From Azolla caroliniana (taxonomy: Eukaryota; Plantae; Polypodiophyta): a DNA stretch of 64,000 nucleotides. A program made the position numbers and the translations under genes. Position 1 is the first letter of the stretch; each line of letters begins with the position of its first letter. Of the stretch, positions 4,310 to 64,000 are shown piece after piece. The notes beneath the pieces are model-generated. The model did not search any database. It was not told the DNA's origin and saw nothing but the letters and a program-made list of their open reading frames with translations. The stretch is from contig JBHGNT010000009.1 of assembly GCA_043228905.1 (NCBI GenBank), positions 19,530,001 to 19,594,000 on the forward strand, given 5' to 3'.

Positions 4310-4340
4310 TTTCTGTGTTACCGTCGCTCTGATACCAGTT

Positions 4341-8016: not shown

Positions 8017-8310
8017 TCGCTCAACACGGTTGGATGCAAGATATAGAAAAATGGTTTGGTAGATGGGATGCAAGACACTTGCTTCATGATGCATCACTAG
8101 ATTGCTCTGTAAATGAGGCCTTTTTGCAACGCCAATGTACCATGACATGGGACAAATGTGGAGGCTCACGCTTCACACATTATACTACACATGTTTCACC
8201 TAACTACAAAACCATATTCTTCGCGAAACGGGAAAAGCATACACATCGACACATGTTAGAGCCCATCCCGTTATTTGCCATTTGAACCATTGCTTCCATG
8301 CGACGTAGCT

Positions 8311-8608
8311 TGTTACCCCGTACGAGATGTACGGAGAGTCAAGTGTGATGAGCGAGGGTCGAATGTTATCATGATGTTGTTGTGTATGTGTAGGGGGCAT
8401 AAATGTAATTGTGAGTCTATATGTATGTGAACACATGCACACGTGTGTGCATGTGGATGGATACGAGGAGGTGTGAGTGAGTGTCCAGTGTGAATGCTCG
8501 AGGGGGCTTACACCCCTATGAATCTACCCCCTCTGGTACTATTTAACCCCTTATGGGGAATGAATGAAACATGAATAATCATTTTCTCTCTTAATCTCTC
8601 TCTCTCTG

Positions 8609-8640
<32 letters not shown>

Positions 8641-8841
8641 CCCCTCAACGTTGAATCCCCTTGGGAGGGGGGTGGAGCCATTCTAGGCATCACCCCCCAC
8701 CCCGCAATGCTTCTCTATGCTTCTCAATGCACATGATCTCTCTCGCCATCAATCCCATACTCTCCATCATCATCATAACCACCATGTCTATCTTTATCAT
8801 GATTATCATCGTCCTTAACCCTAACCCTAAAACCTACAACA
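8311..8841 (+). mobile_element. Solo LTR (531 bp), same family as the 61061 and 63927 LTRs
   Basis: TGTTACC...TACAACA, perfect TSD TAGCT (8306-8310 / 8842-8846). Confidence 0.92.
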
Positions 8842-17600: not shown

Positions 17601-20600
17601 CAATTTGACTTCAAAATCAAACTCCGCCAATAGTAGAGCCCATTTAGCAATTCGTGCTGAAATGCTCACATGTTGGAGTACATATGGGAGTAATGACATG
17701 CTAGTGATTATTACAAAATGATGAGGTAGTAGAAAGCTTCTAAACTTTTTACAAGCATATATAAGAGCTAACATCCACTTTTCTACTTCTAAGAATTCTT
17801 TCTCTACATCAGACATGGCTTTACTAATAAAATATATAGGATGCATAAGCCTATTTTCAGAATCTTGTTGCATAAGAATGGCTCCTATAGCATGAGATCC
17901 AACACTAAGAGAAAGAAAGAAGGTAGATGTTCTATCAGGTGGCTTTAGAATAGGAGCATTACATAATAGTTCTTTTATTCTTACATATTGCTCTTCAGTT
18001 GTAGATGTCCACAAGAAGTTGTTGGTGCGAAGAATAATGCGAAAAGGATAGAGAATTTGGGCCAACATATGAATGAATCGTTCAAAGTAACGAACTTTTT
18101 GAACAAATACCTCCAAATCTTTGATACTCGTGGGTGTTGTCATCTTTTGAATTGCTTCAATCTTTGAGCTATCAACTTTGATTCCTTCTTGAGACACCAC
18201 ATGACCAAGCATCACCACCTCCTTTTCACCTATGTGACACTTCTCTGGGTTGAGTTGCATTTTGCATTCCTCCAATCTTTTGAATGCCAAGCGAACCTTT
18301 TCCAAATGGTCTTTCCTGCTACTATAAATTGCAAAGTCATCCATAAAGACTCTAACAAACTTTCCAAAGAATGGTTGGAATACATGAATAGCAAGACGAT
18401 TAAATGTAAAAACAGCATTTGTGAGTCCAAAGGGCATGCATCGATATGCAAAGCATCCCCATGGAGTGATGAATGTCGTCTTCTTTTGATCCTCTTCCGC
18501 AATACGAATTTGAAAATAACCTGAATAGCCATCACAAACAGAGTACATTTCATGACCCGCAATTTCATCTAATATTTCATCTTGGAAAGGGAGAGGAAAG
18601 TGATCCCTCTTGGTAGCCGCATTTAGAGGTTTGTAATCAACACAAACCCTCCATTTTCCATTCTTTTTAGGTACCACCACAATGGGCGAAACCCATTCAG
18701 AATCTTCCACTGGGTAAATGAATTGTGCACGCAACAAAGCTTTGACTTCCTTTAATAAGGCCTCCTTTTGCACGTGACCTAGCCTTCGCAACTTTTGCGC
18801 AACGGGAGTTGTACCCTCCTTTAGATTTATGTGATGTTGGATGACATCTACACCCCTAATATGAGCATAATCACTAATGAAAAGGTTAGGAAATTCAGAA
18901 ATCAAATTAATAAATTGTTGCCTCTCTTGCCCTTTAAGATCTTTAGAAATCATCTTCTCTTTTTGCTCCATAGTAATTAAACCTCCTTCATCATCTTCTT
19001 CCTTCAAAACGGCATATGATGTGGTCATTTCCCATTCTGACGAGGAATCTTCACTTTCATCACTTTCATATGCGGACCCACTATCATATTCAGTTATTCC
19101 ATCTTCTTCTTTCTCAATAAGTCTTTGTTGCCGCATATCATAATGTATGCTCACTCCTTTTGATGGCGTTATGGTCATCAAACCTTTGCTCCAATCTTGG
19201 ACAACATTGAGTTCTTGCATCCATGGTCGTCCTAGTACCAAAGAATATGACGGTCCTTTTAGTGGTATTACATGAAAATCCATGGAAATGCTTACCCCAA
19301 AACACTTGATGACAACATCCTCCACTATGCCAATGCAATGGACCACTCCACCATCGGCTACAGCCACTCTTGCCGAAGATGACCTACTTATAGGAATTCC
19401 CACTTTGTTTACCACAAATTCAGAAATCAAGCTTACTCTAGCACCACTATCAACCAACGCATCTTTGATGTGAAACCCTTTGATGGAGACGGGGATGGTG
19501 GGTCGTATGTCCTTTCGATCTTCTACTCGCACGATTCCCACATAATGCACAGTCTTCCGACTTTGGCGAATACTTGCAAGTCGCCCCCACTCCTTTCGTA
19601 ATGTGGGAGATAATTGGAGAAGTTGCGGCCATGTTATCCTTGGTCCACTTGAAATCAACTCATGCTTCAAATTGAAAGCTTCTACACCTTCACCCATAGG
19701 AATGTCCTCCATCTTGATCTTTCTTCTAGAGTGTCTCCTTCTCAATTTTTCCTCTTTCTCATTCTCCTTAGACTTCTTCTTTTGTCTTGAGGCACTAGAT
19801 TCTCCTTCAACTTCTTTCTCCTTTTGCGAGGACCTTGTCCTTTTCACAGGAGCTACTTCAAAAGAATTATCACTATCATCAATAAAATTAAGAAGATTCA
19901 CATTATGAGGAATTGTAGGAACCTGAGCCATAGGGAGTGTTACGTTTCCTTCGACTTCATTGTTGTTAGGTCGTTGTCCATTCCTTTGCACGTGATAAAT
20001 GCCTCTTCCCATGCCTCTTTGTTGTCGATGAGGACATCTTGTTGAGATGTGTCCCTCCTCTTGACAAGAATAACAAATTACACCGTGATGCCCTCTAGAG
20101 CCACCACTATCGGGAATAGTGTTGTGAATTGCTTGGGATTGTCGCAAGTGGGTCATCACTTCATCAAAGCGCCGATTTACCAATGCCATGGTATCTTGTT
20201 CACTCCTCACTTGTTCAACTTCTTGGGATATACTTGTTGGGTTTATTGTTGTGGTGGTATACACATTTGGAAACACTTGTCCCCCATGCACAATTGAAGA
20301 TGAGGCTTGAAAGTTGGCACGAGGCATCAAATTTGCACCCAAAGCCGTCATTTGGGGATCCCCCAAGGAGCTCATCATCTTCACTTGTCGATCATAAGCT
20401 TGACAAACTTGGATAAGAGCTTGAAACGATGTGGGATCCTTCAAGTTTGCTTCCAAACGGAAATACATATCAAGACCCATCTTGAATCGTTCCATTTTAA
20501 ACCACTCGTCTTCAGTGCCGCCACGAAGACGAATCCATGTAGTCCACAAATCCTTGAAATTTCTTTCATACTCAGTGAAACCAATTGGTGATTCCATCTT

Positions 20601-21704
20601 TAGTCGAAATAGCTCTTCCCTTACTTCGGTTGCACTTCGTCGTTGAATATATTTGGCACGAAACTGGTGCACCAACAATTGATATGCTCCCTGTTGGTTT
20701 GGAGGAAGAGAGTCATACCAATCTCGAGCTCGACCATAGAATGTAGCTACTAATAAAGGTAACTTCTCATTGTCGGTGATGCGTCCAATAGAGACAGCAT
20801 GATGCTCAAAAGATGCCAAAAAGGCACCCGCATCTTGTGTTCTTTCACCTGAAAATGCAAATTGCATAGCTAAGTTAATGTAATATAGTAACACAATTAA
20901 ATGATAAGTTCTCCCTCCTATACGGAAAGGATCCGCCCTCCCTGGAGCGCCAAAATGATAGAGTGTATAAGATAATAGATAGTTATACACTATATGAGGG
21001 CTTGACCAAACCGATTAGATGGAGTTGAAAATCATAATATATTATATAGCTCTAGGTAATTATGATTAGAGAATATAACTCAAGAAACTAAGAAAAAAGA
21101 TAGAGAAAGCGAGCAAGAAATAAGAATGTTCTGATATTCCAACATCAAGAGAATACAAAGGAGACAAACTCCACATTGAACTAAAACCAAAGACCTTCCT
21201 CTTCTAAGACACTTCCTCTTCCACAAAGACACTTCTTCCTAACACTCCTCATCCACTCTTTGGCCTTCACTCTTAGCCCCCCTCCTCACTAATATTACTT
21301 CTTCTTTTATAACCTTCCTCTTCTTATCCACGTTCATGCTATTTTTAGAAGCTTTTTATCTCCCTATTTTTAGCTATGACACATCAACCTTCTAATCGTC
21401 ATATCTCCCTCATCCGATATCCAAATTAAGCGATTTAAAAAGCTATAGAAATCTCTTTTTACAAGCTTTCTAATCCATATTTAAACGTGATATTTGGATA
21501 AACAACGAGGGAGTTATGACCATTCTATTTTTACTGTTTTTTATAGTCTGCGTTTTCTCTTTTTACTTTTCTCTTGGTCTCGTACTTTTACTTTTGACTT
21601 CTTCCCTAAGGTCTTAGTTCGTGTTCTTATCCTCAAAAGGTGAATTATCTATACTTTATATTCTCCTAATGTTCAATGGCTTAGATTCTAAAAACACTTT
21701 CACA
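14698..21704 (-). mobile_element. Intact Ty3/Gypsy Tat-type retrotransposon (7007 bp)
   Basis: 749-bp LTRs 14698-15446 and 20956-21704, no differences seen by eye; TSD CATTC; PBS TGGCGCTCCAGGGAGGG (from 20952); PPT AGGGGGAGGG at ~15452-15461. Confidence 0.96.
15708..20867 (-). CDS. Gag-PR-RT-RH-aRH-INT polyprotein, ~1719 aa
   Basis: CYSCQEEGHISTRC; ALVDSGA; WRVCVDY, MPFGL, FMDD; second RNase H LFFDGA..NNEAEY..GDS..NKEADALA; GGH..CDAC, WGIDAVGP, SDHG, QANGAVE, WEGPF. First ATG after the PBS is at 20867. Confidence 0.95.
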   Translation of the reverse strand: MQFAFSGERTQDAGAFLASFEHHAVSIGRITDNEKLPLLVATFYGRARDWYDSLPPNQQGAYQLLVHQFRAKYIQRRSATEVREELFRLKMESPIGFTEYERNFKDLWTTWIRLRGGTEDEWFKMERFKMGLDMYFRLEANLKDPTSFQALIQVCQAYDRQVKMMSSLGDPQMTALGANLMPRANFQASSSIVHGGQVFPNVYTTTTINPTSISQEVEQVRSEQDTMALVNRRFDEVMTHLRQSQAIHNTIPDSGGSRGHHGVICYSCQEEGHISTRCPHRQQRGMGRGIYHVQRNGQRPNNNEVEGNVTLPMAQVPTIPHNVNLLNFIDDSDNSFEVAPVKRTRSSQKEKEVEGESSASRQKKKSKENEKEEKLRRRHSRRKIKMEDIPMGEGVEAFNLKHELISSGPRITWPQLLQLSPTLRKEWGRLASIRQSRKTVHYVGIVRVEDRKDIRPTIPVSIKGFHIKDALVDSGARVSLISEFVVNKVGIPISRSSSARVAVADGGVVHCIGIVEDVVIKCFGVSISMDFHVIPLKGPSYSLVLGRPWMQELNVVQDWSKGLMTITPSKGVSIHYDMRQQRLIEKEEDGITEYDSGSAYESDESEDSSSEWEMTTSYAVLKEEDDEGGLITMEQKEKMISKDLKGQERQQFINLISEFPNLFISDYAHIRGVDVIQHHINLKEGTTPVAQKLRRLGHVQKEALLKEVKALLRAQFIYPVEDSEWVSPIVVVPKKNGKWRVCVDYKPLNAATKRDHFPLPFQDEILDEIAGHEMYSVCDGYSGYFQIRIAEEDQKKTTFITPWGCFAYRCMPFGLTNAVFTFNRLAIHVFQPFFGKFVRVFMDDFAIYSSRKDHLEKVRLAFKRLEECKMQLNPEKCHIGEKEVVMLGHVVSQEGIKVDSSKIEAIQKMTTPTSIKDLEVFVQKVRYFERFIHMLAQILYPFRIILRTNNFLWTSTTEEQYVRIKELLCNAPILKPPDRTSTFFLSLSVGSHAIGAILMQQDSENRLMHPIYFISKAMSDVEKEFLEVEKWMLALIYACKKFRSFLLPHHFVIITSMSLLPYVLQHVSISARIAKWALLLAEFDFEVKLESTMRAELADLLTFRETFHEEDLVKLRKALPEPDMEDAFTLFFDGAFRKATNIAVGGIILKDPQGDRVKGEGITLSGVNSNNEAEYATLCYGLRLCKAMKIKRLILKGDSLLVIKQIQGNWKCQSDGLRNFYKEAMSLLRSFEKIQIKHVRRLYNKEADALAQAQLDKIKEGFVGVLETCKDVDSLEEVHNFLNKGEFPNNLNALQRKRLVAKASQYHLVGEDLYNKGKDGVLRRVPNKSEIIKILFKLHEEVCGGHLAHDIMIRKILLIGFTWPTIHRDVHVWCRSCDACQKAGIRHLQSGPLQPIVVFAPFEKWGIDAVGPLPKTQHGKEFILVAIDYMTKWVEAIATSSIKAKDVAQFVYKNICTRFGVPMEIVSDHGPGFRSEMLACLLSRLKIKHRYSTPYYPQANGAVEKVNGLIVKNLTKLVQDKVRTWDRYLDDTLWAYRVSYKSSTGFTPFYLVYGKEALLPIELEIKSNRLMEASHRSKGNDVMSRLASNHLLQYSREEAVEHYLNQAMKRKEAYDKKHKGNHIEEGSLVLRYDNRYDYIQGQKLDNKWEGPFVVHKKYDNGSYQLKDVDGALHSYRVNGWRLKKYVTRGPTYIPQVTNDIVDTDGWEQEVDLFPHTLFS

Positions 21705-23448: not shown

Positions 23449-26400
23449 TGTCATGATATGGTAAGACTCGAACCCATGACCTTATGCTACATGGGTCGAG
23501 CTCTTAGCATTAGACTATGAATTGTAATTTGTAAGATATTATTTTCATTTATACTTTATCATAGAAAATTGATGTATATTCCAGATCTCTCTAGAACATT
23601 CTAGAAGCTTCAAGATTATTCCTAAAAACATTATAAAAGAGGCACAAGGCATTGTTTTGAACCAAATTGGTTCAACGCCAGTCTTAAGCCTCTTAGCCAC
23701 TTTGTACTTATCTTTCACATAATATATTAGCTGTTGTCATCATCTTTCTCTCTCTCTCATTCTCACTATCTCTCTCTCTCTCTACTCAAGAACTTTCTTA
23801 GCTTAAGCTATTTTCTTTTATTTTAGTTTTGATGATTGGATAAACGCTCATTTTTGTTGTAACCCAATTGTCTCATGGGCCAAATTTGGCCTTAGAAGAC
23901 GTTAATATATCTTTCTTTCTTTCTTTCTTTCTCTCCTCTTCTCTCTTTTTCTCTCGGGAATCTTACGCAGTCCCATCCTCTTAGTACTAATAGTACTTCT
24001 CTTCTCTAGTACTAATTCTCTCTCTGTTTAGTACTATTCCTAACAGTTTGAACCAATTTTCTTCCTCAAGTCTACTTGTCGTTTTCCCTCCTCCTCCTAT
24101 CCTTTTTCTATATTATGGCTACTGTTAACGCCCAAGAATATCAATCCGTTTTCTCTGAGCTACAGTGTCTAAAAGAAAAGTTTGTTGCCCTGGAACAAGA
24201 AAAGCAACGGTTGATAGGGGATCTGCAACAAATTACTTTAGGAAAACAACAAACGCAACAACAACATGGGGAGTTAGCGTTACGAGTACAACAACTCGAA
24301 GCATCGTTGCAACAACAAGGATCAAGTCCCCAAGGATTTCATAAAGAGCCCAAGATTGGACTTCCTGTGAAATTTGATGGAGCGCGATCGCAATTCCGGG
24401 GATTCCTTAATCAAGTACGCTTAGTCATCCAGATGCATCCTTCCCAATATCCCACTGATGCATCTCGAGTCGGCCTAATAGGCACGTTACTTAGCGGCTC
24501 AACCTTGGCATGGTTCGCTCCGCTTCTAGAAAAACAATCACCCTTGCTTAATAACTTTGAAGATTTTATTAGTGAGTTTAAAGCTTGCTTTGGAGATATC
24601 GACAACATGAGGACGGCGATCAACAAAATCTGAAGATTGTGTCAAGGCGATCGTCCAGCCTCTGCCTACGCGGCGAATTTCCGTCTACTCGCCTCAGATA
24701 TCCCTTGGGATGATCAGGCCCTCGTGGAGAAGTTTTGCTAAGGCTTGCGCAATGATGTCAAAGACTTGCTTTTAACCTTCCCCAAAGAAACAAAGTCTCT
24801 TACGGAGGCAATCAGTCGAGCGGTCTGATGCGACAACCGCCTTTTCGAACAGCGTTCGGAACGTCAGTTACAACTACCACGCTCTCGGCCAGAACCCACA
24901 TACGCTTCAGTCACGGCTAAACCGTTTGCACGCGACGTACCTCAAGCCAATATTCTGACACCGATGGAGATCGACACCATGCGTCGACGCGGCCCATTAT
25001 CGGAAGAAGAAAAGCAACGACGACGTGCCAATCGATTATGTCTTTATTGCGGTGGACCAGGGCATATCGCCATCAATTGTCCCCATAGGCCAAGAAGACA
25101 GGTAAATCAAATCGTCGCTTGTACTAAACCCGAGTCAATTCTTCCCTTCGGAGTGTCTGATAGTATTAATAGTACGAATAGAGTGTCCGATAGTATTCAC
25201 AGTACTAATAGCCCAAGTATCTCAAACAAATTTGAAATCCTTAGTTAATTAGATGAAGAGTTAAACGATTGAGTCCAGCCAAAATAGGAGCCATTTGGTT
25301 GGACAGCAGCCCTAGATCTCTACAACCCATTAGTGGTTCCATTCCTTCCAAACAAGTTAGCAAAGTGTTCCTAGCCCAAGTCATTGTTAGTACTAAAAGT
25401 ACTCCCCCAGTACCCATCCTAACACTTTTAGATTCCGGAGCTAATTCCTGTTTCATGGATCGAAATTTTGCCCAAGCTTCTCAGATATCCTTAAGAAAAC
25501 TTCCTTGTCCTGGATCTGTAGTAGTCATTGATGGTCGTCCCATTGCTTCCGGGAATATTGTAGAAGAATCAGAACCCATTCAAGTTGTCCTAGGTAGTTT
25601 TGTGTGTGTAGTATCATTTAATATAATTAGTAATCCAGAGCATCCCATTGTCCTAGGATTACCTTGGTTTGAATTACATAATCCAGCCATAGATTGGAGA
25701 ACAAGAGAAGTCTGATATCGACAACCCCAAGAATCTACTCACCGAGTTTCGACCATTTCACTCCATCAATTACACGATGAAGGACACAAGGAGGCAATGT
25801 TCCTATTTGCAATATCAGTACATCATTCCAGCACTATTCAGAAGGAATCCTCAGCACAACTTCTGGCAAAATATCATCCTTATGCCGATGTATTTGCAAG
25901 GTAAAAGTCGGTACCCTTCCTCATCACCGTCCCTATGACTGTCCCATCGATTTACAACCAGGAACCGAGCCACCATGGGGACCAATTTACAACTTGTCAC
26001 CCACCAAGTTAGAAGTCCTTCGAGCCTACATAGAGGAGAACTTGGCAAGCGGGTGCATCCGTCATTCGAAATCTCTGGCCGGTGCACCCATCTTCTTTGT
26101 CAAGAAGAAAGATGGCTCACTTCGTCTCGTCGTTGATTACCGCAGATTGAATAAGGTCACAATCTGGAATAGGTATGCACTTCCTCTTATATCCAGTCTT
26201 TTAGAGCGAGTTAATGGTGCCAAGTTTTTTTACCAAAATCGATCTACGAGGAGCGTATAACCTCGTGCGGATCCGACCGGGAGATGAATGGAAGACCACC
26301 TTTCGCACGCGGTATGGACATTTCGAGTATACTGTTATGCCGTTCGGCCTAACCAATGCACCCGCAGTCTTCCAACACATGGCAAATGATATATTAAGAG

Positions 26401-29293
26401 ACCTCTTGGATATCTGTTTGATCATCTATCTGGATGATGTATTGATTTATTCGAAGACCCAAGAAGAGCACGATTCTCATGTACTATTAGTACTAAAGCG
26501 AGTCCGCGAGAATGGTCTTTATGCCAGGCTAGAAAAATGTAGCTTTGACTGCAAGCAAGTGGAATTTCTAGGCTACGTCATCTCCTCAAAGGGCATCGCC
26601 ATGGATCTAGCTAAAGTCCAAACTGTACTAGAGTGGCAAATTCCACAGTCGGTAGGAGATGTACAATGTTTTCTAGGTTTTGCTAACTTCTACTGTAAGT
26701 TTATACATGATTACTCAAAGATTATTTTACCTCTCACACAACTTACGAAGAAAGGACAAGCAGTTCTTTGGTCCAATGAAGCAGATATGGATTTTCGGCA
26801 TCTTAGGAAAGCCTTTACATCAGCATTGATTCTAGCTCATGTGGATACAAGCAAACCATTCATCATGGAGGCTGACGCAACAGATTTCGCCCTCGATAGC
26901 ATCCTTTCTCAACAAAGAGATAAAGAAGAGTTACATCCTGTGGATTTCCATTCGCGCAAATTCGATGTCATGGAAATCAACTACGAAATACATGACAAGG
27001 AGTTATTAGCCATCGTGGATTCATTTGTGCAATGGCGGCATTTCTTAGAGGGCTCTCCACATCAAGTCATTGTCTTTAGTGATCATAAAAATCTTACTTA
27101 TTTCCAGAACGCTCGCGTACTAAATCGACGGCAAGCTCGGTGGGCTTAATTCCTCAAGCGTTTTGACTTCAAAATCACATATCGACCGGGGAAGCAGCAA
27201 GGAAAAGCAGATGCACTATCACGGCGTTCATATCTTGCACCTCATCCTGGTGATCCAGCATTTGATAATCAAAAGCAAGTAATCTTGGGACCAGCACGAT
27301 TGCACACAACGCGGATTTTTCACACCCCGATGGATTCACGGATTACCGATGACATACGTGCAAACTTGAAGACGGATAGTTTTGCTCAAGACATCCTGAC
27401 GCACATTGATACTTCTCGGGCATCCTGTTCTCAGTCTCAACAACTAGGTATTGACTACCGACAATTCGAATATCATGATGGTTTGTTATTCTTTAAAAAG
27501 CGCGTATATGTCCCTGATTGCTCTTGTCGCCTTCAAATCGTCCAGAATTGTCCCGACACCCATATAGCGGGACATTTCGGTAGTACTAAGACGTTGGATC
27601 TAGTGCAGCGATGTTTTTGGTGGCCCCACATGCGCCGTTTTGTCGACGACTACGTTCGGACCTGTGATGCTTACTGTCGAGCAAAGATGCCACGACACCA
27701 TCCATATGGCTTGTTGGAACCCTTACCGATTCCAAGTCCGTGGCAATCTATTTGTCTTGATTTTATCACCGATCTCCCGGTCTCGAACGGGTTCGATGCT
27801 ATCTTAACCGTCGTCGACTGATATACGAAGATGGCACATTTTGTGTCGTGTACTAAGGCCATCACTAGCGAGGAAACCGCCGCCCTCATCATGCGTGAGG
27901 TATTTCGGCATCACGGCCTCCCAGACAGTATCATCAGTGACCGGGAACCTCAATTCGTCTCCAAATTTTGGCAACGTCTCTTAAAGATGCTCAAGGTCTC
28001 TTGCAACCTCTCCTCCGGCTACCATCCCCAAACCGATGGGCAGGCGGAATGAACAAACCAAACACTAGAACAATATCTCCGGTGTTTCCTGAGTTATCAA
28101 CAGGACGATTGGGCTGAGATTCTCCACTTTGCGGAGTTTGTGTATAATAATGTTATTCACTCCTCGACTCGGATCTCCCCATTTTTCTCTTATACCGGTT
28201 TTCATCTTCATTGGTCGGTGATCGACACCCCGGAGCTACCTACCAACCCTCGTGCCGAGGATCATTTGGAGAGGCTACGCAAGATCCAGATGGATCTCTC
28301 TACTCACCTTCGTCATGCTCAACACACAGAGAAGACTTACGCGGATCGTCATTGGATTCCCTACTCTTTTGCCATCGGAGATCGAGTATGGCTCTTACGT
28401 CGTCACATCAAGACTACTCGACCGTGCAACAAGTTGGATTATCGACGACTCGGTCCTTTCCGTATTACGGGTAAGGTTAATGATGTCACATTCCGCCTTG
28501 ATCTCCCTCCGCAACTTCAGATACATCCAGTTTTCCATTGTTCTCTTCTTGAACCTTTTAAAGCAAACACCATTCCCGATGGTGTTACACCACCGTCGCC
28601 CCCGCTGGAGTTGGACGTCGGCCCTGAGTATGAAGTTGTTGCCATCCTCGATTCCAAACTTGTTCACAACAAACTTTATTATTTGGTCGATTGGCTCAGT
28701 TATAGTCCGAGCGAACGTACTTGGGAACTTGTCGAGCATGTTGCCAATGCTCAAGATCTTCTTGTTGATTTCCACCGAAAGTATCCAGACAAACCCGGTC
28801 CGCAATCAGCGCCGACTCGTTCCACTCGTCATCTTTAAGGGGGAGATAGTGTCATGATATAGCAAGACTCGAACCCATGACCTTATGCTACATGGGTCGA
28901 GCTCTTACCATTAGACTATGAATTGTAATTTGTAGAATATTATTTTCATTTATACTTTATCATAGAAAATTGATGTATATTCCAAATCTCTCTAGAACAT
29001 TCTAGAAGCTTCAGGATTATTCCTAAAAACATTATAAAAGAGGCACAAGGCATTGTTTTGAACCAAATTGGTTCAACGCCAGTCTTAAGCCTCTTAGCCA
29101 CTTTGTACTTATCTTTCACATAATATATTAGTTGTTGTCATCATCTCTCTCTCTCTCTCATTCTCGTTATCTCTCTCTCTCTCCTCTTCTCTCTTCCTCT
29201 CTCGGGAATTTTACGTAGTCCCGTCCTCTTAGTACTAATAGTACTTCTCTTCTCTAGTACTAATTCTCTCTCTGTTTAGTACTATTCCTAACA
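23449..29293 (+). mobile_element. Chromovirus (Tcn1/Tf1-sushi-like Ty3/Gypsy), full length but decayed
   Basis: LTRs 23449-24045 and 28850-29293 (TG..CA), TSD GTGAC, PPT AAGGGGGAGA, C-terminal chromodomain. Confidence 0.93.
24115..28838 (+). pseudogene. Chromovirus gag-pol (PEG10-like Gag, PR, RT, RH, INT, chromodomain) with multiple stops and frameshifts
   Basis: PVKFDGARSQFRGF, CLYCGGPGHIAINC, LLDSGA, MPFGLTNAP, YLDD, YEIHDKELLAI, YHPQTDGQAE, EYEVVAILDSK..YYLVDW. Confidence 0.92.
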
Positions 29294-29424: not shown

Positions 29425-32400
29425 CTGGGCATATCCCTTTGCAACAAGTCTTGGTTTATGTCTACTAACATTTCCATTTGAATCATGCTTTGTTTTGTAG
29501 ACCCATTTGCAACCTACAACATTTTTTCCTTTTGGTAACTTTACCAAATCCCATGTTCTGTTTTCAGCCAATGCATCTATTTCTTCTTGCATTGCATTCA
29601 CCCATTTCTTATCAGATTTTGCTTCATCAAAATTATTTGGATCAGGGATTTGTACCACTTTAGGCATGTATGCATAATGCATAGCCATATATGTGTCATA
29701 ACCAAATCTTTCAACAATCTTTTTCTCTCTATCTTATCTTCTCAGTTTCTTATTTGCATCTTTCATTGTTTTTTCCATACGAGGGATTTTCAAGGCTCGT
29801 ATACCAAGCTCATCATTCAATGATGTATTTGAATCTACATCTTCCATGTTTCTAGACCCATCATCAAGCATTTCATATTCTGGCATCTTCTATTTTCCCT
29901 TTTTATCATCATATTTTTTGGTTCTTGCATTTTTTCCACTCCATGCATTAGATTCAGATTTACTACATGAGCTTCCAAATGGTCAAGTACATTCTATTTA
30001 TGTGGAACTTTGCTATCCAACATTGTTTCCATTTCCTTGGGAATCTCTTCCATTTTTAGATTTTTCTCTATCTTCATTTTCACAGTCTTCATCAATTTCT
30101 ACATTTCCTTTTGGGTTGTACCAGCTGCCCAACTCATCAAATATTGATAGGAACTGCACGCTCCCTATGCACAATGCTCGGCCACAACCAAGCTTAGAAT
30201 CATACACAAAAAACGGGAAATGAAACACACGACACAAAGGCGAGAAGAGTACATAGGATGTTTAACGTGGAAAACCCTGAGAGGGAAAAACCACGGGAGT
30301 CCACAGACTCCAAACTATCAGTATATAAGAATGTACGATGGTGGAGCACCAAGGCAACGACCTCGAGCTTGCTATCTTCGCCATAGTTGGCGGTTACAAC
30401 AGAGATACGAAACCTTCGTCTCTTTCTCTCTCTCTCTCTCTCTGTACACTGTTACGCGCTCTCTCTTCTTGGACCAACAAGAATGACAACCACACTCAAT
30501 AAGTTTTCCCTAAGTCATATTTATACTAATATGACTTTTTGGCTATTTACAAATATAGCCTCGATGGACTCTCAGAAACATATTTACAAATATGTCTCTT
30601 CATCCGGTGAGCACTCCTCACCGGGCCTGCATCATCCGGCGCTTGCCGGGTACTTGCCATCCAATTCTCACCGGGTCTTCCGTTTCCGAGTACTCCTCAT
30701 CCGGTTCTCACCGGGTTTGCACCATCCAGCTCTCCGTAGCCGGGTTCTCCTCATCCGGTTCTCACCGGGTCTACACCATCTGGCTCTCCGTAGCCGGGTT
30801 CTCCTCATCCGGTTCTCACCGGGTCTGCACCATCCGGCTCTCCGTAGCCGGGTTCTCCTCATCCGGTTCTCATCGGGTCTACACCATCCAGCTCTCCGTA
30901 GCCGAGTTCTCCTCATCCGGTTCTCACCGGGTTTGCACCATCCGGCTCTCTGTAGCCGGGTACTCGTCATCCAGTTTCGGCCTCGGTCGAGTTTGCTCAT
31001 CAGCACTGTTCTTTTCCCTTCCCATCCGGAGGGACCTTTCTCCCAACAAATATTACATCATGGTTTACCACAATCTTTTTTGTTAATGGGTTATAACGTC
31101 TATACCCTTTTTGCTCCTTCGAATATCCAACAAGAACACATTTTTCAGCTTTTGGATCAAGCTTACTTCTTACTTCAGCAGGTACATGGACATAGGCAAG
31201 GCATCCAAACACTTTTAAGTGTCCTAAACTAGGTTTCGTTCCATAGAAACATTCTTCAGGAGTTACTTCATGTACTCCAGATGTTATACATCTATTTAGA
31301 ATAAAGTTTGTTGTGTTTACAGCTTCTGCCCAGTAATACAATGGCATATTTTTTTTAGTCATCATGGCTCTTGCTATGTTCACCAGAGTTCTGTTTTTTC
31401 TCTTAGCAACTCCATTTTGCTGTGGAGTATATCTACATGTAAACTGTCTCCTTATTCCTTGATTACATAGAAAATCAAAAAATTCATCTAAGAAATATTC
31501 TCCTCCTCCATCAGATCTTAAACATTTTATTCTAATTCCAGCCTACTTTTCTACCATGCACTTAAACTTATGGAAGCAATCAAATACTTCAATTTTCTCT
31601 TTCATGAAATAAACCCATGTTTTCCTTTAGCAATCATCAATAAATGTTACATAAAACTTACATCCACTAATTGATGCATTTTTTGTTGGTCCCCATACAT
31701 TTGTATGTACCAAATCTAACAAATTTTTCCTTACATGTCTTTCATGAGGGAAAGGCAACCTGTTTTGCTTTCCATATTGACATGCTTCACATATTTTGCT
31801 CATCTCATCATCTTTCAACTCAGGCAATCTAGCCACTATATTTTTCCTTAGCATATTTTTAAAGGTTTGCATAATTATGTACCGATTCTTTTATGCCACA
31901 TTTCCGCATCTGAGATTACGCGCATTCCTTCTGCAAACATGGTTGTAATCTTTTTTGGCATATCCACATCTAACACAAACATTCTTCCTTGACATTTTCC
32001 TTTTGCAATAAGCTTTCCCCATTTCTCTTTAAAGCATCCACTTTGCTTAAACTTAACCTGCATTCCTTGCTCTACTATCTGTCCAACAGAAATCAGACTT
32101 TTTGCAAGGTTTGGAACATGCATCACATTCAACATATACTTTGTTTTTTGTTTTTCTTCCCACAATGGGATATCTCCAACATGCTCAATTGTATGAGTGG
32201 TGTTATCACCTGTTTGTACATAACCAAGAATCTCTGGTTCCCTTAAACTTTCAAACCAATTTGCATGTCCTTTCATATGATTAGATGCCCCAGAATCTAC
32301 ATACCACATAAAATATTCATTACATCTCTGTGAACATTCAGCCATTGTTGTTGTTTCATGTTGCATCACAAATGCACCATCTTTATCACAGTCTTCACTA

Positions 32401-45407: not shown

Positions 45408-48400
45408 TCAAGCTCGAACTGTCTTCAAAGTTGATTCCGATAATCGACAATAGCCATTAGCTGGAGTCTTCAATTTCTTCTTCCCAGATGCAGTTCGACC
45501 ACCATTGGAAGTACTGCATTTTGGGCATATATACTCAAGCCCATCCGTTTTAGCATACTCCTAATATCAAACCACGGAAGGAAACTATTAAATATCATTA
45601 TTATATCGAGCACATAAAAAAATTATTAGCTGCAAGCAAAATTGTTGAACATTTTAAGGCCCCAATTGAACATTTTAAAGCATGATATGAAATTAATCAG
45701 ATACAAAAAAGACCTCTTTTACAAATGAGATGAACAATTAACTCTTGTCCTGGCATAGATGAAAATCCAGTATCTAAGATAACACTATCAACTGAAGGAT
45801 GAGACCACCAATAGCTTGAATGTGAGATCTGAAATCGCGTATGTTTCAAGTTAAGGTTTGAATCAGTAATTTCTCATGTCTACATTGTATGGTAATCTAT
45901 ATAATCATGTTAAGCTTTTCCAAGTGCTACCAGGGAAAGATATGCGGTTAGATCATTATAGTTCAATCCTTACAGATAAACTGTCTCCCCAGTTTAAATT
46001 TGCTTCCTGTGTCCATCTAGAATATTTTTTTAATATATAGCCTAGTATACAATGATATCAGAGATTATTAGCAAATATAGACAAAGGCAACTTAATATCT
46101 GCATCATAGCCAAGGATGAAACAGAACTGAATATAACCTTAAATGCACCCAATACATTCCGTTTGTCACAGCCATAATGTGCCCACTCTCCACAAATTCC
46201 ACAATTTACCCAATCACCAGCTGCGCTACTGAAAAAGTACCGAGTGTCAGACATCTTATTACGAAAACATTACATGACTTGCACTGGAAAAAGAACAGCA
46301 GAAAATTAGGTCTAACCTGTGGCATATGATACAACATTCACCATCCACATCATCATGTGCAAATTCGTACTCCAATAGGTATGTTTCATAGTGTTTCTTC
46401 AATGTATTCCCAACACCCTACACATTCCCACGCCATTGCAATTACAATATAATCTCCCTCTCTATCTCTCTCTATCTCTCTATCTCACATAGATCGCAAT
46501 CGGTCTCCCATGGACATTGAAAAGATATCTATCTATCTCTTTCTTTCCTAAAGAATATTGTTTTGTACAGCATACAAATTCACAAGATCGCTTTCAAACA
46601 TAAGAGAAATTGGAACAGTTGCAAATGACATGCTCTATCTTGCCATCAAGAATGTAACTGAAGCAGCTTCTCCAGATATAATGCTGGATATGGTACTAAA
46701 AATAATATGTTACCATGTGATGGCCACCCAGCTCATCACAAGGAAACATGTCCTCTGAGACTCTTTGAAATAGCCTGCACCTGTGACCATAAAGATGGAT
46801 GAAAATTATCTCTGGTAAGATAAACTTCCATGTACAGCCTGACATTTGAGAATAAATCCCCCATATACTGATATCCAAAAACCATATATACATCCAGAAA
46901 CTACTTAAAAAGCGTGATCAAAGTCACCATGAAACAGTATGATAGTTGTAGGTTGATCCTTTCGTGTAGCAGTCTGGAACCTAGTGCTTTATGCATCTGT
47001 AACTTTTATACAGCACCCTCTACAAGGGATTGAAAAAAGTTGAGGTGAGAACTGCATGTTTATTACTTAATGCTAAAGCAAATCTAGCATATCTGTCTTC
47101 TGATGTGATATTTGCATTTATGTTGTAATTAGAGAGTTTACTCTCTAAAAATATTCTAACACAACTTTCCATATGGGGACTAGAATATTACAGTCATTTT
47201 GTTGAGAATGGTATGGTTACGCATTTTTGAGAAAACTTGTCCCCTCCAATTGATGCCATTTCCTACATGGAACCCTCCTCTTGAGACCACCTGATTTTTA
47301 AGCACAAGAATGGCCTCAACAAAAAGTCTAAACTGACCTTCATATTACAATGCTCCAAAAACACAAACATATACCTCCTTATACAAGTTGTATAAATCAA
47401 GCCTTTTCCCATTTAACACAGCATCTGGAAAGGTTTCTACATCTGTTGACGCAGCAAGACGGCCGTGCCCACGTGAAATGAGAAACTGCATAACATCTTT
47501 CTTGAATTCCTCCTGTTCCATACCAGAAAAGTACATAAGAACATATATCTAATACAATCCATCGAGAGATGCTGCTATACAAGTACTGAACTTTGATGAT
47601 TCACCATAAACAAAAAGTGACATGGAACTCAAACCTCTGAGCACTCAAGCATGTGTCGGCGATTACAGCCATGTTTCTTCATTGGAACAGGGTTTAAAGA
47701 AAGCATTTGCGCAGGGGATGGAGCTCGAATACTTGGAGCTCTATTACTAACAGAAATGCTTGAATTCGGTGAGAGTATGGTTCCTATACTTGAGTTTGGC
47801 CGAGAAATTCTTCCACTTGAACCATTTGGCAAAGTTGCTTTCATGTTCAACATATTGTGAGCAGCAGCCACGACAGCTCCTGAATATGGCATTTCTTGGT
47901 TTGCATGCACATGAGGTATTGGTTTCATGGCCGCCATATAATTACATGTAGGTATCCGAGTTCCAATATCAGAAGATTCAGAATCTTCATCACCAGAAGA
48001 TTTACTATAGAAACTTCCATAACTGTCTATCCTTTGCCTTTTCCTACTTGGAACTGGGGGGGTTAACCACGATGGTATGTTAGAAGTATAATTACTATTA
48101 TCCTTTCTTCCAAGGTCAATTCTTCGGGGTAATAAGGTGAGAAACCTATCAGCATCCTTTCTTTGGAAAGAAGCTACTGGAAAACCTTGTATTCCAGCAA
48201 TACCCAATGCGACAAGCGTTCGAAAAGAGAGTTCAGGAGCAAGCTGTCGTAAGACCTGTCAGAAAGAAAAATAAGACCGAAGGAATAACATGGATAGAAT
48301 ACATGTATAGAATGACAAAAGCTACCTGCAATGCCCAAGTGGAGCTTCTAAACCTGACCTCCGTTACACTTTCACCACAGGCAATAGATGCAGATTTCCT

Positions 48401-58016: not shown

Positions 58017-60328
58017 GAAATACATGACAAGGAATTATTAGCCATCGTGGATTCATTTGTGCAATGGTGGCATTTCTTAGAGGGCTCTCCACATCAGGTC
58101 ATTGTCTTTAGCGATCATAAAAATCTTGCTTATTTTCAGAACGCTCGCGTACTAAATCGACGGCAAGCTCGGTGGGCGCAATTCCTCATGCGTTTCGATT
58201 TCAAAATCACATATCGACCGGGGAAGCAGCAAGGAAAAGTAGATGCACTATCACGGCGTTCATATCTTGCACCTCGTCCTGGTGATCCAACATTTGATAA
58301 TCAAAAGCAAGTAATCTTGGGACCAACACGATTGCACACGACGCGGATTTTTCACACCCCAATGGATTCACGGATTACCGATGACATACGTGCAACCTTG
58401 AAAACGGATAGTTTTGCTCAAGACATCCTGGTGCACATTGATACTTCTGGGGCATCCTGTTCTCAGTCTCAACAACCAGGTATTGACTACTGACAATTCG
58501 AATATCATGATGGTTTGTTATTCTTTAAAAAGCGCGTATATGTCCCTGATTGCTCCTATCGCCTTCAAATCGTCCAGCATTTCACGACACCCATACGGCG
58601 GGACATTTCGATAATACTAAGACGTTGGAGCTAGTGCAATGATCTTTTTGGTGGCCCCACATGCGCCGTTTTGTCGACGACTACATTCGGACCTGTGATG
58701 CTTGCTGCCGAGCAAAGATGCCACGACACCATCCATATGGCTTGTTGGAACCCTTACCGATTCCAAGTAAGCCGTGGCAGTCTATTTGTCTTGATTTTAT
58801 CACAGATCTTCCGGTCTCGAAGGGGTTCGATGCTATCCTAACCGTCGTCGATCGATATACGAAGATGGCACATTTTGTGCCGTGTACTAAAGCCATCACT
58901 AGCGAGGAAACCGCCACCCTTGTTATGCGTGAGGTATTTCGGCATCATGGCCTCCCAAACAGTATCATCAATGACCGAGGACCGCAATTTGTCTCCAAAT
59001 TTTGGCAGCATCTCTTCAAGATGCTCAAGGTCTCCTGCAACCTCTCCTCCGGCTACCATCCTCAGACTGACGGGTAGGCGGAACGAACAAACCAAATGCT
59101 GGAGCAATATCTCCGATGTTTCCTGAGTTATCAATAGGACGATTGGGCCGAGATTCTCCACTTTGCAGAGTTTGCGTATAATAATGCTATTCACTCCTCG
59201 ACTCGGGTCTCCTCATTTTTCGCTTATACCGGTTTCCATCCTCGCTGGTCGGTGATCGACACCCCGGAGCTACCTACCAACCCTCGTGCCGAGGATCATT
59301 TGGAGAGGCTACGCAAGATCCAGATGGATCTCTCAAATCACCTTCGTCATGCTCAACACACAGAGAAGACTTATGCGGATCATCATCGGATTCCCTCCTC
59401 TTTTGCCATTGGAGATCGAGTATGGCTCTTACGTCGTCACATCAAGACTACTCGACCGTGCGACAAGTTGGATTATCAACGACTCGGTCCCTTCCGTATT
59501 ACGGGTAAGATTAATGATGTCAGATTCCGCCTTGATCTCCCTCCGCAGCTTCAGATACATCCGGTTTTCCATTGTTCTCTTCTTGAACCTTATAAAGCAA
59601 ACACCATTCCCAATCGTGTGACACCACCGCCACCTCCGCTGGAGTTGGACGCCGGCCCGGAGTATGAAGTTGCTGCAATCCTCGATTCCAAACTTGTTCG
59701 CAACAACCTTTATTACTTGGTCGATTGGCTCGGTTATAGTCCGAGCGAACGTACTTGGGAACCCGTCGAGCATGTTGCCAATGCACAGGATCTTCTTGTT
59801 GATTTCCACCGAAAGTATCCGGACAAACCTGGTCCTCAATCAGCGCTGACTCGTTCCACTCGTCATCTTTAAGAGGGAGATAGTGTCATGATATGGCAAG
59901 ACTCGAACCCATGACCTTATGCTACATGGGTCGAGCTTTTACCATTAGACTATGAATTGTAATTTGTAAAATGTTATTTTCATTTATGCTTTATCATAGA
60001 AAATTGATGTATATTCCAGATCTCTCTGGAACATTCTAGAAGCTTCAAGCTTATTCCTAAAAACACTATAAAAGGAGGCACAAGGCATTGTTTTGAACCA
60101 AATTGGTTCAACACCAGTCTTAAGCCTCTTAACCGCTTTGTACTTATCTTTCACATAATATATTAGCTGCTGTCATCATCTCTCTCTCTCTCTTTCATGC
60201 TCGCTATCTCTCTCTCTCCTCTTCTCACTTCCTCTCTCGGGAGTCTTACGCAGTCTCGTCCCCTTAGTACTAATAGTACTACTCTTCTTTAGTACTAATT
60301 CCATCTCTTTTTAGTACTATTCCTGACA
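58017..60328 (+). mobile_element. 5'-truncated second copy of the chromovirus (RH-INT-chromodomain, PPT, 3' LTR 59884-60328)
   Basis: Closely similar to 26985-29293; several in-frame stops. Confidence 0.92.
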
Positions 60329-61060
60329 GAACATTTACAATATCATATGGAAAAATCAAAGTCCTGGATGAAATCAGCCCATCGTGCCTTACGACCTTTC
60401 AGGTCTCGTTGGTCACAAAAATATTTCAAGGACTCGTGGTCCGTAGTTACCACAAAGCGATTTCCATAAACATAATGGCGCCATGTTTTGAGCGCATGTA
60501 TAACTGCAAATAATTCCTTTTCTTGAACGATATACTGACATTGAGCAGAATCAAGTTTCTTACTCTCGAATGCTATTGGTTTACCATCTTGATATAAGAC
60601 AACACCTATAGCATAATCGCTTGCATCGGTTTCAAACTCAAAAGGTTTTGAAGGATCAGGTAAAAGAAGTGAAGGAGCCTTGCACACCAGGTCCTTGAGT
60701 TCCTTAAAGGCGAGGTCTAGTGTAGCATTCCAGACAATAGGTTTTGTAGACTTATGCGTTTGACCTTTTAGAAGATCAGTAAACGGCGTCGTCAATTGGG
60801 AGTAATTACGAAGGGATTTTCGCAAAAACCCGACAAAACCAAGGAATGATCGAACTTCTCGAATATTCTGAAGAGTGGGCCAAAGCTTGATTTTCTCAAT
60901 GCAAGAAGGATCAATTTCAACTCCTTGTTCGGTTATGAGATGTCCAAGATAAGTAATTGATTTCTTGAAGAACTCACATTTTGAGATCTTCGCATAAAAT
61001 TGTTTGTCACGCAATGTTTGTAAAACAAAGCGAACATGTTTAGCATGTTCTTGTAATGTA
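60329..61060 (-). pseudogene. Gypsy RT/RNase H fragment of a different family
   Basis: SKCEF..YLGH, EVRSFLG, ETDASDYAIG, EKELFAV, TDHESL. Confidence 0.88.
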
Positions 61061-61329
61061 TGTTACCCCGTACGAGATGTACGGAGAGTCAAGTGTGATG
61101 AGCGAGGGTCGAATGTTATCATGATGTTGTGCGTGTGTAGGGGGCATAAATGTAATTGTGAGTCGATACGTATGTGAACACATGCACACGTGTGTGCATG
61201 TGGATGGATATGAGGAGGTGTGAGTGAGTGTCCAGTATGAATGCTCTAGGGGGCTTACATCCCTTTGTATCTACCCCCTCTTGTACTATTTAACCCCTTA
61301 TGGGGAATGAATGAAATATGAAATAATCA

Positions 61330-61386
<57 letters not shown>

Positions 61387-64000
61387 TCATCTCTCTTTGT
61401 CATCTCTCTTCCTCTCTCTCCCCTTAACGTTGAACCCCCTTGGGAGGGGGGTGTAGCCATTCTAGGCACCACCCCCCACCCCACAATGCTTCTCAATGCT
61501 TGTCTTGTTCTTCATGTTCTCTCTCACCATCATACCATTCATCATCTCCACTATTACACCATGTCTATCTTCGTCATCGATAATCATCATTACCATTAAC
61601 CCTAACTGTAAAACCTACAACACCTTTTGGCGACCACTAAGGCGACCCCCCTTTGGAGACGGAGTCGAAGAATGATACGCGGATGTGCAAGCCATAGCGA
61701 CTAAGTGCAAGAAATGGCGAAACGTAAAAATGACAGTGAAGATGTTGGAGGAAGTCTATGGAGGAATGCAGAAATGGAAACAACGTTTTGTGCAAGTCAA
61801 TGTGTCAATGTGCGTGGTTCCGAATGCGGTTAGCGACAATGTGTGTGTTTCGAATGCGTGGTGCAAGATGCACGGCTGGACAAACAGCGACGCAGAGGGA
61901 ACCGACGCCAGCACGACCGGAAAGAGAAGCCCACCCGGAGACTGCAGTGGAAGACGCAGTATGTGGAGCGGAGGCCGGCAAAATGTGTTGAGAATGCACG
62001 AGAGATGGTTCCAAACGAAGCAACACAGAGAGAGTCGGAACTGGAATCGGAACTAGACCCAAAGTTGGTTAACATAGAGGGGCCAACGTAGACAGAGAAG
62101 GAGACGCTGTCATTGACGAGACATTGACGGCCAGAAAAACTGACAACGCCCAAAAGACATGGAGGACTGACTATACAATATCAAAACAAAACGAGGCAAC
62201 CGGACAAGCTAGACTGCACAAGCACAGACAGAGACGAATGGATGGGCGAAAAGGAAGCATACAGACTCAAGCGACACAACCGAAAATAGGTAGGAAAGAA
62301 CCAGACAGATGACCGAGAAGACGGACCAGACGCACAGCCAAAAGACAACGGACAGACATCCGGATGGGCGGCCGGACAGGAGCCGGAGAGCCTGAATGGC
62401 CGGACAACAACGGCCACAACGGCAGTCTAACGTCATCCGTACGAAGACCGAATGAAGACTGATGGAAACCAATAGAGTCAGCGACATAGGATGACTGGAT
62501 AGAGACTGGCAAGGACGGGCAGAGATGGACGAATGACGGCCGGCAATAGCGATATTGGAATGGTCCAAACAAATGAACAGAATGACAGGAACCGACAGGA
62601 CAGCGACAGCTACGGCCGGAATATGATGACGACGCCGAATGGTGGCAAAATGTTCATTGAGAACGACGACGGCAAAAAAGCTACGGACAACGGTGAAAGA
62701 CAAGCCGGTGTGGCCGGATAGGAGCGGAAGAGCGGTCGACTGTATCCTACCCAGGGGGGTGACACCGATAGATATGGAAGAGAGGCCGGAAAAAGTCGGC
62801 TGAAGTGCGACCGAAGAGCAGTCGGAGTGGCCGAATGGCGCTGAAACGAAGGTGCCGGACCGGACGACGCTGAACAACGACAAACATGGAGATGGCCAGA
62901 CATCGGACGGACTAATGGCGGAAGCGTAATCGGTGCAACGTCTGGATAGGCGGCCGAAGACGGAGCCAAAGACAGAGATAAAGATGGCGACGACGCAAGA
63001 CACCGACGACCGGATGACGGTTGAAACGGTGACAAAGATGGACGACCGACAGAGGCAACGGACAACGATGATGATTGCCGGACGAGGCCAAGCGATGGAA
63101 ACGACGACGACAACGGAAACAGAGATGGCAACGATGATGGAGGCATCGACAGCCGACTAGCAGTAGGTCGACAACCGACGAAAGAGACGGTCGATGGGAG
63201 GAGAAAAAAAAAAAAGCAGCAAACGATGCCGGAAACAACGATGGCAGTAGAAGAAGAAAGAAGAAGAACAGAAATGAACAAGAAGAAGAAAAACGCAGAC
63301 CAAAGCAACACGAAAGAAGGAAACAGAGAGGAGGAGCAAAGCAAGATTCGGGCACTAGAGATAGAGGCATGGACAAAGAGAGAATCAAGCGGGAGAATCA
63401 GAGGGAGAGAAGAAGCAAAAGGAGACACAGACAGACAGGAGGAAGAGAAGAGAGAAGAAGACAAATACAGAAGGGAAGGTAAAAATGACCTAAAAGCAAA
63501 AGAGAGGGAAAAAGATAAAATAGGGGTACGAGACAAATTTTGAAACCCTGAGGGTATCGAGTAAAATTTCAAAAACTAGAGCGTACATAATTAAAATTTT
63601 AAAAATCAAAGGGCACCTACGAAATTTCGAAAACTCATCAACCTAAAAGAAATGGATGTGATCGACACACAACTCACAAAATCAACAAAAGGAAGATACA
63701 CATACACACAACGTTTTTGGACCCATGATATCAATGTTTGTGAACCGACAGAACGAGAATGTTCCTGTCGATGAAGTCGCTGACCGAAGGAGATATTCGA
63801 GTCAAGAGCTCCGATCGAGGGAGTCGATCGTTGAGAAGACCGATGGAAGTTCCGATCGAAGAAATATCATCATCAAGGCATGTGGGATCGGCGTGCAAGG
63901 CACTTTCCCACGGGCGTGCCATATTGTGTTACCCCGTACGAGATGTACGGAGAGTCAAGTGTGATGAGCGAGGGTCGAATGTTATCATGATGTTGTGTGT
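61061..64000 (+). mobile_element. Non-autonomous (LARD/TRIM-like) LTR element: LTR 61061-61622, 2.3-kb non-coding interior, second LTR from 63927
   Basis: Direct LTR copies starting TGTTACCCCGTACGAG; tRNA-Arg-like sites at both internal ends; no recognisable protein domains inside. Orientation inferred from TATTTAA followed by (CT)n. Confidence 0.8.

Follow-up and report, generated by a model that had tools for sequence, protein, structure and literature searches.

How does a long terminal repeat (LTR) retrotransposon prime the second strand of its DNA when no polypurine tract (PPT) lies beside its LTR? This question is raised by an element of the fern Azolla caroliniana that begins at position 61061 of a 64,000-nt stretch of assembly GCA_043228905.1 (JBHGNT010000009.1:19,530,001-19,594,000; hereafter the window) and continues past its end. 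That a tRNA primes the first strand and a PPT the second is taken to hold for retroviruses and LTR retrotransposons in general, and in Ty3 and the retroviruses the plus strand is primed from the PPT (PMC5371799, PMC3185511; here and below, statements from the literature refer to excerpts of the papers cited). An earlier note on the window had claimed that this element carries two inward-facing tRNA primer-binding sites (PBSs) and no clear PPT, and had suggested dual-tRNA priming. We find that the element is a non-autonomous LTR retrotransposon that lacks the PPT feature, and that this observation is real, family-wide and unusual.

Structure of the element and its two terminal sites

The left LTR (61061..61622, + strand; 562 nt, TG..CA), which is likely the 5' LTR if the + strand is sense, is preceded by ATGTA (61056..61060, +), the predicted copy of a target site duplication (TSD) whose right counterpart would lie beyond the window end. 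Its insertion splits a gypsy reverse transcriptase (RT)/RNase H frame on the minus strand (60343-61062; Pfam RT_RNaseH). The window end truncates the right LTR after its first 74 nt (63927..64000, +), of which 73 agree with the left LTR. Between the LTRs lies a non-coding internal region of 2304 nt (61623..63926, 67% purine on the + strand), the ends of which are conserved and the middle diverged. A solo LTR of the same family (8311..8841, +; 83.5% identical to the left LTR) is flanked by the 5-bp TSD TAGCT, in agreement with the earlier view that the family was mobile, and indicates integrase-type insertion for this LTR family. Because the solo LTR carries this TSD, both LTR boundaries are fixed.

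Inward from the left LTR, a 5-nt spacer (CCTTT, 61623..61627, +; CTTTT or CATTT in other copies) leads to site L, TGGCGACCAC (61628..61637, +), a 10-nt complement of the tRNA-Arg(UCG or CCG) 3' end plus CCA and likely the minus-strand PBS. At the opposite end, site R (63882..63921, +) is a split sense copy of tRNA-Arg(UCU) positions 49-76 that ends in CCA. Its minus strand gives the PBS-like TGGCACGCCCGTGGGA (63921-63906), and site R probably serves to prime the plus strand. It is separated from the right LTR by the spacer TATTG (63922..63926, +; CAATA on the minus strand), which is constant across the family. Read inward, the left end on the + strand is ACCTACAACA / CCTTT / TGGCGACCAC and the right end on the minus strand is CGGGGTAACA / CAATA / TGGCACGCCCGTGGGA; that is, both sites lie 5 nt from AACA LTR ends, with symmetric 5+5 spacers. 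The coordinates, spacers and site positions first described for this element were all reproduced. The site L 10-mer has 0.05 expected occurrences per shuffled window, and the site R 16-mer was found in 0/100 shuffles.

Correspondence of the two sites to tRNA-Arg

CCA is joined to the 3' end of tRNAs, and we added it to the gene-encoded ends for comparison. The comparison was made by eye with the rice Ala and Arg tRNAs in the excerpted alignment of PMC5492330, in which the tRNA-Arg(UCG) and (CCG) genes end GTGGTCG and one tRNA-Arg(UCU) group ends GTGGGTTCGAGTCCCACT-GGGCGTG. Once CCA is added, the final 10 nt of rice tRNA-Arg(UCG)/(CCG) are complementary to site L. Site R extends beyond the 16-mer noted earlier, since the T-arm is followed over 63882-63921, and it agrees with the UCU tRNA at 25/28 of positions 49-76 in most copies and at 24 in the window copy. 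Within its 40 nt, one T-loop base is replaced by 14 nt that include the hairpin GTGC-AAG-GCAC (63893-63903), and the tRNA base preceding GGGCGTG is missing. Both sites stop exactly at CCA, which is absent from plant tRNA genes. Thus, the resemblance to plant tRNA-Arg 3' ends claimed earlier holds for the rice tRNAs as printed, against which either site qualifies as a PBS, and on this comparison the two sites match different tRNA-Arg isoacceptors.

A second block near site L, GGAGTCGAA (61661..61669, +; 0.43 expected per window), can pair at 9/9 bases with rice tRNA-Arg(UCG) on its T-loop side, or may instead be a hairpin arm. We also searched for tRNA genes with ARAGORN, which called no tRNA within the 64-kb window and no tRNA-Arg in the 12 family contigs introduced below (L001-L012), while Rfam, searched over 61000-64000 at E up to 10, gave four chance matches, none of them a tRNA. 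A tRNA-like arm that ends in GTGGTCG was seen in eleven viral loci, three of them called tRNA-Arg; these loci say nothing about the host and were not used. Two tRNA-Pro(TGG) calls on the minus strand of L008 (5196-5269 and 6205-6276) stand among similar short repeats, and are possibly a tRNA cluster or tRNA-derived short interspersed nuclear elements (SINEs).

Conservation of both sites across the family

We retrieved family loci by the exact LTR-start pattern and obtained 12 metagenome contigs (L001-L012), which are short-read contigs with collapsed repeats. CCCACGGGCGTGCCA and TATTG precede the LTR start in 11/12 loci, and the twelfth has an unrelated flank, as expected of an outer end; L006 has one additional junction with the spacer TATG. 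According to the earlier note, the two-site reading would fail if TATTG were the TSD of a separate insertion. Since TATTG precedes 11/12 LTR starts, it is a family constant and not a TSD. Among the nine LTR ends in these loci, five are followed by 5 nt and TGGCGACCAC, three by unrelated flank and one, in L008, by another sequence; none of the nine (0/9) precedes ATGTA, and for the window element itself the right flank lies past the window end. In L008, an older LTR is followed by CTATTT TGGCACACC (L008:3388-3405), which is one of six inner LTR ends and occurs in one contig. It could represent decay of site L or a switch towards the other tRNA-Arg isoacceptor, and we did not use it as support. 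L011 starts at site L itself.

The site L 10-mer is invariant in 7/7 left junctions. In addition, four contigs hold the whole internal region with both sites. Although the five internal regions (window and four contigs) are pairwise only 52-63% alike, all five retain both sites, and similarity to the window per 100-nt bin rises from 27-51% in mid-region to as much as 94% in the site R bin. About 350 nt upstream of site R are also well conserved. Other copies thus retain both sites and have no PPT at the LTR, and those refuting conditions of the earlier note that could be examined did not overturn the two-site reading. Two direct LTRs with TG..CA, as in LTR retrotransposons generally, are found in the window, and complete LTR pairs also occur in L006. 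The whole of L006 and L002:1-700 follow LTR-internal-LTR-internal paths, in which one LTR is shared between site R and site L; such paths could reflect genuine tandem arrays or an assembly that ran across collapsed LTRs.

We then compared independent assemblies. Of the 22 runs listed, 20, from 10 studies, hold part of the window, and six were compared, using contigs at least 80% alike to it (24 of 170 loose-end rows). Over 61420-64000, between 1,389 and 3,379 contigs were aligned per run in four runs. The right junction is bridged by two organism C contigs with at least 53 bases on each side; the left junction is bridged at the 31-base bar in organisms A, B and D, and the listed organism E contigs have at most 28 LTR bases. 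At positions 61628-61637 in organisms A, B, D and E, the differences listed are confined to one CpG (61631 C>T in 1.1-2.6% of depth and 61632 G>A in 0-1%), against variation of up to 21% at the spacer base 61624 in the same organisms, and of 71% at 61638 and 94% at 61640 in organism E. Conservation at site L therefore ends with the tRNA-paired 10-mer. A subfamily with a different inner end may, however, have escaped this comparison. The family is high-copy and occurs in at least five related organisms.

Two details of the earlier description were not upheld by these comparisons. The second 'gcacgcc', taken as a repeated core of site R, is private to the window copy, because 63891 reads A at almost all of the depth in 4/4 runs (91,876/92,126 in run X1) and in 10/10 locus rows, and the second 'ggcgacc', taken as a repeated core of site L, is kept in only 3/7 left junctions. 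We also found contigs that match from 63881 on and have other upstream sequence in 4/4 runs (4, 5, 4 and 3 contigs), so that the shared unit begins where the T-arm match starts. Their upstream agreement with the window was 0.53-0.59 in three runs and 0.93 over a median of 10 bases in the fourth. We infer that only this terminal module is present in other families as well.

Absence of a polypurine tract beside the LTR

If the + strand is sense, the 40 nt that precede the LTR contain no purine run longer than AAGG, which lies 25-26 nt from the LTR, in 13/13 junctions. If the minus strand is sense, no purine tract adjoins the LTR, and the longest run measures 7-9 nt and lies 23-24 nt away in 6/6 junctions; on the minus strand, the 5-nt spacer is not made up of purines alone in every copy (AAATG in L008). 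In contrast, three control elements in the window have PPTs of 10-11 nt at 2, 3 and 5 nt from the LTR. Thus, the PPT beside the 3' LTR that characterizes LTR retrotransposons is absent in either polarity, as the earlier note had stated for both ends. The minus-strand run in the window copy, AAAGGGGGG (61646..61654, -), lies 23 nt from the LTR. It is too distant for a normal PPT, yet it supports an alternative considered below.

Coding content and polarity

Three internal regions, read in 18 frames in all, contained no Pfam family, and when three proteins of the window were used as tblastn queries, only flanks were matched. As these searches revealed neither a coding remnant nor the gag-pol of an autonomous Ty3/gypsy element, we consider the family non-autonomous. 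The family LTR had no match in the viral-contig and genome-contig collections. The site R module had none in genome contigs, and its 1 and 12 viral-contig matches were taken as chance or phage tRNA, as no retroelement proteins stood alongside. No autonomous partner came to light in these searches. We considered window element B (14698-21704) as a partner and rejected it, since it has a different LTR and a normal PPT.

The + strand is probably the sense strand. The TATA-like TATTTAA (61287..61293, +), a weak indication of this polarity, is present in 9/9 aligned LTRs and is followed by AATGAA-type words and a CT tract, and TATA(A/T)A occurs on neither strand of these LTRs. The + strand is also A-rich, like the copia and Tat-like frames of the window, with an AT skew of 0.44-0.51 in 5/5 internal regions. 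However, the longer tRNA match at site R, the better conserved LTR half beside site R and the displaced G-run favor the minus strand. The two-site anatomy is independent of polarity. A GC-rich, self-complementary block inside the LTR (61421-61490) lies between two variable tracts and is 91-93% conserved over nine LTRs.

A model for dual-tRNA priming and its alternatives

Because site R ends in CCA, lies at a PBS-like distance from the LTR, is conserved base for base amid a decaying interior and occupies the position of a PPT, the simplest view is that the plus-strand primer has its 3' end there. The reading that we prefer is that a second host tRNA primes the plus strand, although, as far as sequence evidence can tell, the chances that it is right are evenly balanced. 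In such a cycle, with the + strand as sense, the enzymes of an autonomous partner would anneal tRNA-Arg(UCG/CCG) to site L RNA and start minus-strand DNA as usual. RNase H would then clear the RNA, and the minus DNA would expose the site R complement with its first bases single-stranded before the hairpin; in the predicted minus-strand DNA fold at site R, most of the 10-mer is indeed unpaired and the hairpin follows. Here tRNA-Arg(UCU) would anneal by 10 bp, possibly into the T-arm, and prime plus-strand strong-stop DNA through TATTG into U3. Once RNase H had removed both tRNAs, the linear DNA would carry 5 extra bases past CA at each end; trimming by integrase would then produce the TG..CA ends and the 5-bp TSD. 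Under minus polarity, each tRNA would take the role of the other. More broadly, we propose a fern LTR lineage without a PPT, in which both strands may be tRNA-primed by two Arg isoacceptors at mirror-image sites and integrase may trim 5 bases per end; the 3.4-kb family would be its minimal form, with little beyond two LTRs and two tRNA sites. This broader picture, too, seems to us about as apt to be right as to be wrong.

Several points weigh against this reading of the sites. The minus-strand purine run AAAGGGGG(G), 23-24 nt inside the left LTR, had been overlooked earlier, and a PPT-bearing subfamily could be missed because only contigs at least 80% alike were compared. The 10 locus rows long enough to print a right junction (L002 and the first L006 junction lie too near the contig start) contain just four distinct sequences. 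The tRNA reference is rice and not the host, and the window copy lacks one T-loop match at 63891. Because one tRNA base is missing and the T-loop carries an insert, any site R pairing beyond 10 bp needs bulges. The second block GGAGTCGAA is perfect in 3/7 junctions, 8/9 in two and weaker in two, and a change within it in L007 preserves, by eye, the hairpin and not the tRNA pairing; we therefore do not count a second T-loop block at site L as firm. In the predictions, shuffled sequences fold just as well (z -1.5 to 0.6). At site L we saw no compensatory pairs, and a conserved, covarying RNA structure there is unsupported. The dual-tRNA interpretation in the earlier note is partly supported: the anatomy and the tRNA match stood and the repeated cores did not, and priming by a second tRNA is still something that we infer.

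We also considered whether the sites act through base pairing within the element. Site L and site R pair with each other at -7.4 kcal/mol, whereas perfectly matched 10-mers would reach about -19 to -21 kcal/mol. The best LTR complement to either site on either strand is 7/10. Owing to this poor pairing, neither circularization via the sites nor Tf1-type self-priming explains them; a PBS that complements the 5' end of its own transcript, as in Tf1, Tcn1 and TAR, is not present.

Among the alternatives, a primer built into the element survives best. Here the tRNA-end copy in the element's own RNA would survive RNase H, be cut right after CCA, in the manner of a tRNA-DNA junction, and prime the plus strand instead of a PPT, which would make a second tRNA in the particle unnecessary. 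Such an element-derived tRNA-like RNA fits almost as well as a second host tRNA: the 5-nt spacer and the CCA end would be no different, the + RNA of site R is predicted to fold into a T-stem/acceptor-like hairpin, and PPTs, in the excerpt of PMC3185511, have no common consensus and tolerate a pyrimidine. However, in the predicted fold the CC of CCA is buried and the stability is about that of shuffles (z about 0), RNA stably paired with new DNA would presumably not retain the hairpin, and the copy tracks an isoacceptor unlike that of the other end, which a cis-acting mimic would not need. We regard this explanation as possible, if rather unlikely. The two leading models could be distinguished through the RNA on plus strong-stop DNA, because the element copy lacks one tRNA base and has the hairpin insert.

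Ordinary priming in the minus polarity is unlikely. In that case, site R would act as the PBS and the G-rich run at 61646-61654 as a displaced PPT; site L would be a relic or protein-binding motif. R-U5 is often the better conserved part of an LTR, and the LTR half beside site R is indeed better conserved (92-99% against 55-93% outside the CT tract); site R is also the longer tRNA match, and the purine run, which resembles the control PPTs, is kept in 6/6 junctions. On the other hand, the TSD of the solo LTR sets the boundary 23 nt from this run, compared with 2-5 nt in the controls, so that 23 extra bases would be left at one end and 5 at the other. Moreover, site L is better conserved than the run, and TATTTAA and the A-rich strand favor the + polarity.

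It also seems unlikely that the 3' tRNA copy has a non-priming role, such as packaging, RNA dimer formation or a tRNA-fragment decoy, and that some short and atypical product of RNase H, which merely overlaps it, starts the plus strand. In Drosophila Gypsy, the 3' PBS is dispensable for cDNA synthesis (PMC1635307, as excerpted), and the region of about 350 nt upstream of site R is likewise well conserved. Nevertheless, the second sites of Gypsy and Ty3 lie on one RNA strand with the first, complement the tRNA used there and are not inverted, and none of these roles requires a CCA placed exactly 5 nt from the LTR in mirror image of a PBS.

Replication from transcripts of both polarities, which the earlier note had also offered, found no direct support and is improbable. 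In a two-way element, both strands would be transcribed, either RNA would be the genome, and the PBS would be the site downstream of its own 5' LTR. This agrees with the symmetric anatomy and with an internal region that has no reading frame to fix polarity. A second-strand primer would still be needed, however, and the proposal therefore reduces to another model; in addition, a single TATA-like motif was seen, and the two strands differ strongly and consistently in composition (AT skew as above). Finally, a chance or nested insertion, with a solo or second LTR beside the PBS of another element, is very improbable and largely refuted: the right TSD lies outside the window and metagenome contigs can be chimeric across collapsed LTRs, but TATTG and site R precede 11/12 LTR starts, the two organism C contigs bridge the right junction, and both sites persist in four diverged internal regions.

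Comparison with known retrotransposons

The window family resembles canonical Ty3/gypsy elements, as described in the excerpts, in its TG..CA LTRs, in the 5-bp TSD of its solo LTR and in a short putative host-tRNA PBS just inside one LTR, and differs from them in having a copy of a tRNA 3' end, ending in CCA, in place of the PPT. Bipartite or double PBSs are known from Ty1, Ty3 and Drosophila Gypsy, which likewise have acceptor-stem and T-arm matches and a tRNA-related site near the 3' end (PMC5371799, PMC1635307). However, their PBS segments lie on one RNA strand, match one tRNA, serve minus-strand initiation or have no cDNA role, and the PPT is kept. In the window family, the second site is inverted and appears to match another isoacceptor, unlike the Ty1/Ty3 arrangement of one strand and one tRNA.

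Among plant elements, the OTA group (Athila, TatIII, Ogre, Retand) is similar in its tRNA-Arg PBS, short spacer, 5-bp TSD (in our family that of the solo LTR) and frequent non-autonomous derivatives. In the part of PMC6317226 consulted, a tRNA-Arg PBS is given for 64% of TatIII, 89% of Ogre and 30% of Retand elements. Athila elements have an AT-rich 3-6-bp spacer between LTR and PBS, and in Brassicaceae Athila the PPT at the 3' junction is conserved (97%; ATHILAfinder preprint, 10.64898/2026.03.20.713144, excerpt). Thus, these Athila keep the PPT, and the lineage as excerpted is defined by protein domains that are absent here. Since several clades share it, a tRNA-Arg primer is not diagnostic of OTA.

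TRIM, LARD and TR-GAG elements retain LTRs and cis signals, lack pol, reach high copy number and keep the PPT. Typical TRIM and LARD sizes bracket our element of about 3.4 kb with LTRs of 0.5-0.56 kb. In the window family, compared with these, no gag was found and no PPT adjoins the LTR. We also consulted parts of the supplements of PMC6317226 and PMC5389709, which contain neither motif. The 'two PBS' of PMC3212995, considered as a precedent, proved from its excerpt to be a different case. Our literature searches, in which coverage of subscription journals was thin, returned no description of a tRNA-primed plus strand or of an inverted PBS replacing the PPT.

If demonstrated, the priming route would be new, and this applies to either leading model, the second host tRNA or the tRNA mimic. 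The success of a family without an adjoining PPT in at least five related organisms suggests that another plus-strand primer works. Because the element is short and non-coding, its cis signals are delimited, and it could serve as a natural reporter backbone. In addition, annotation tools that demand both a PBS and a PPT would miss such elements or could misorient them.

Other features of the window

The window contains several further repeats. Element B (14698-21704, -) is an intact-looking Tat-like element with 749-nt LTRs that are 100% identical, the TSD CATTC, a normal PPT and a 1768-aa frame in which an extra RNase H (RVT_3) lies between RH and integrase. This order belongs to the angiosperm Ogre and Retand in the excerpt of PMC6317226, and the host here is a fern. 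Two chromovirus-like gypsy copies (23449-29183 and about 58017-60329, +), 93% alike over 2.3 kb, have a normal PPT. At 1-5073 (-) lies a copia element with a 1403-aa frame and LTRs containing 28-nt tandem repeats, and an LTR-like sequence related to it, with 54-nt repeats, occurs at about 30175-31050. A long inverted repeat at 6306-7162 has 407-nt arms that are 96% complementary with 43 nt between them, and a further arm lies at about 7639-8018; it contains 43-nt and 22-nt tandem units and is foldback-like or like a miniature inverted-repeat transposable element. Finally, the 28 matches to an ARID-domain gene fragment (47629-48258) have their closest named members in Adiantum (51%) and Ceratopteris (46%), which fits a host that is a fern other than these two; the moss, liverwort and seed plants named among them reach 30-41%.

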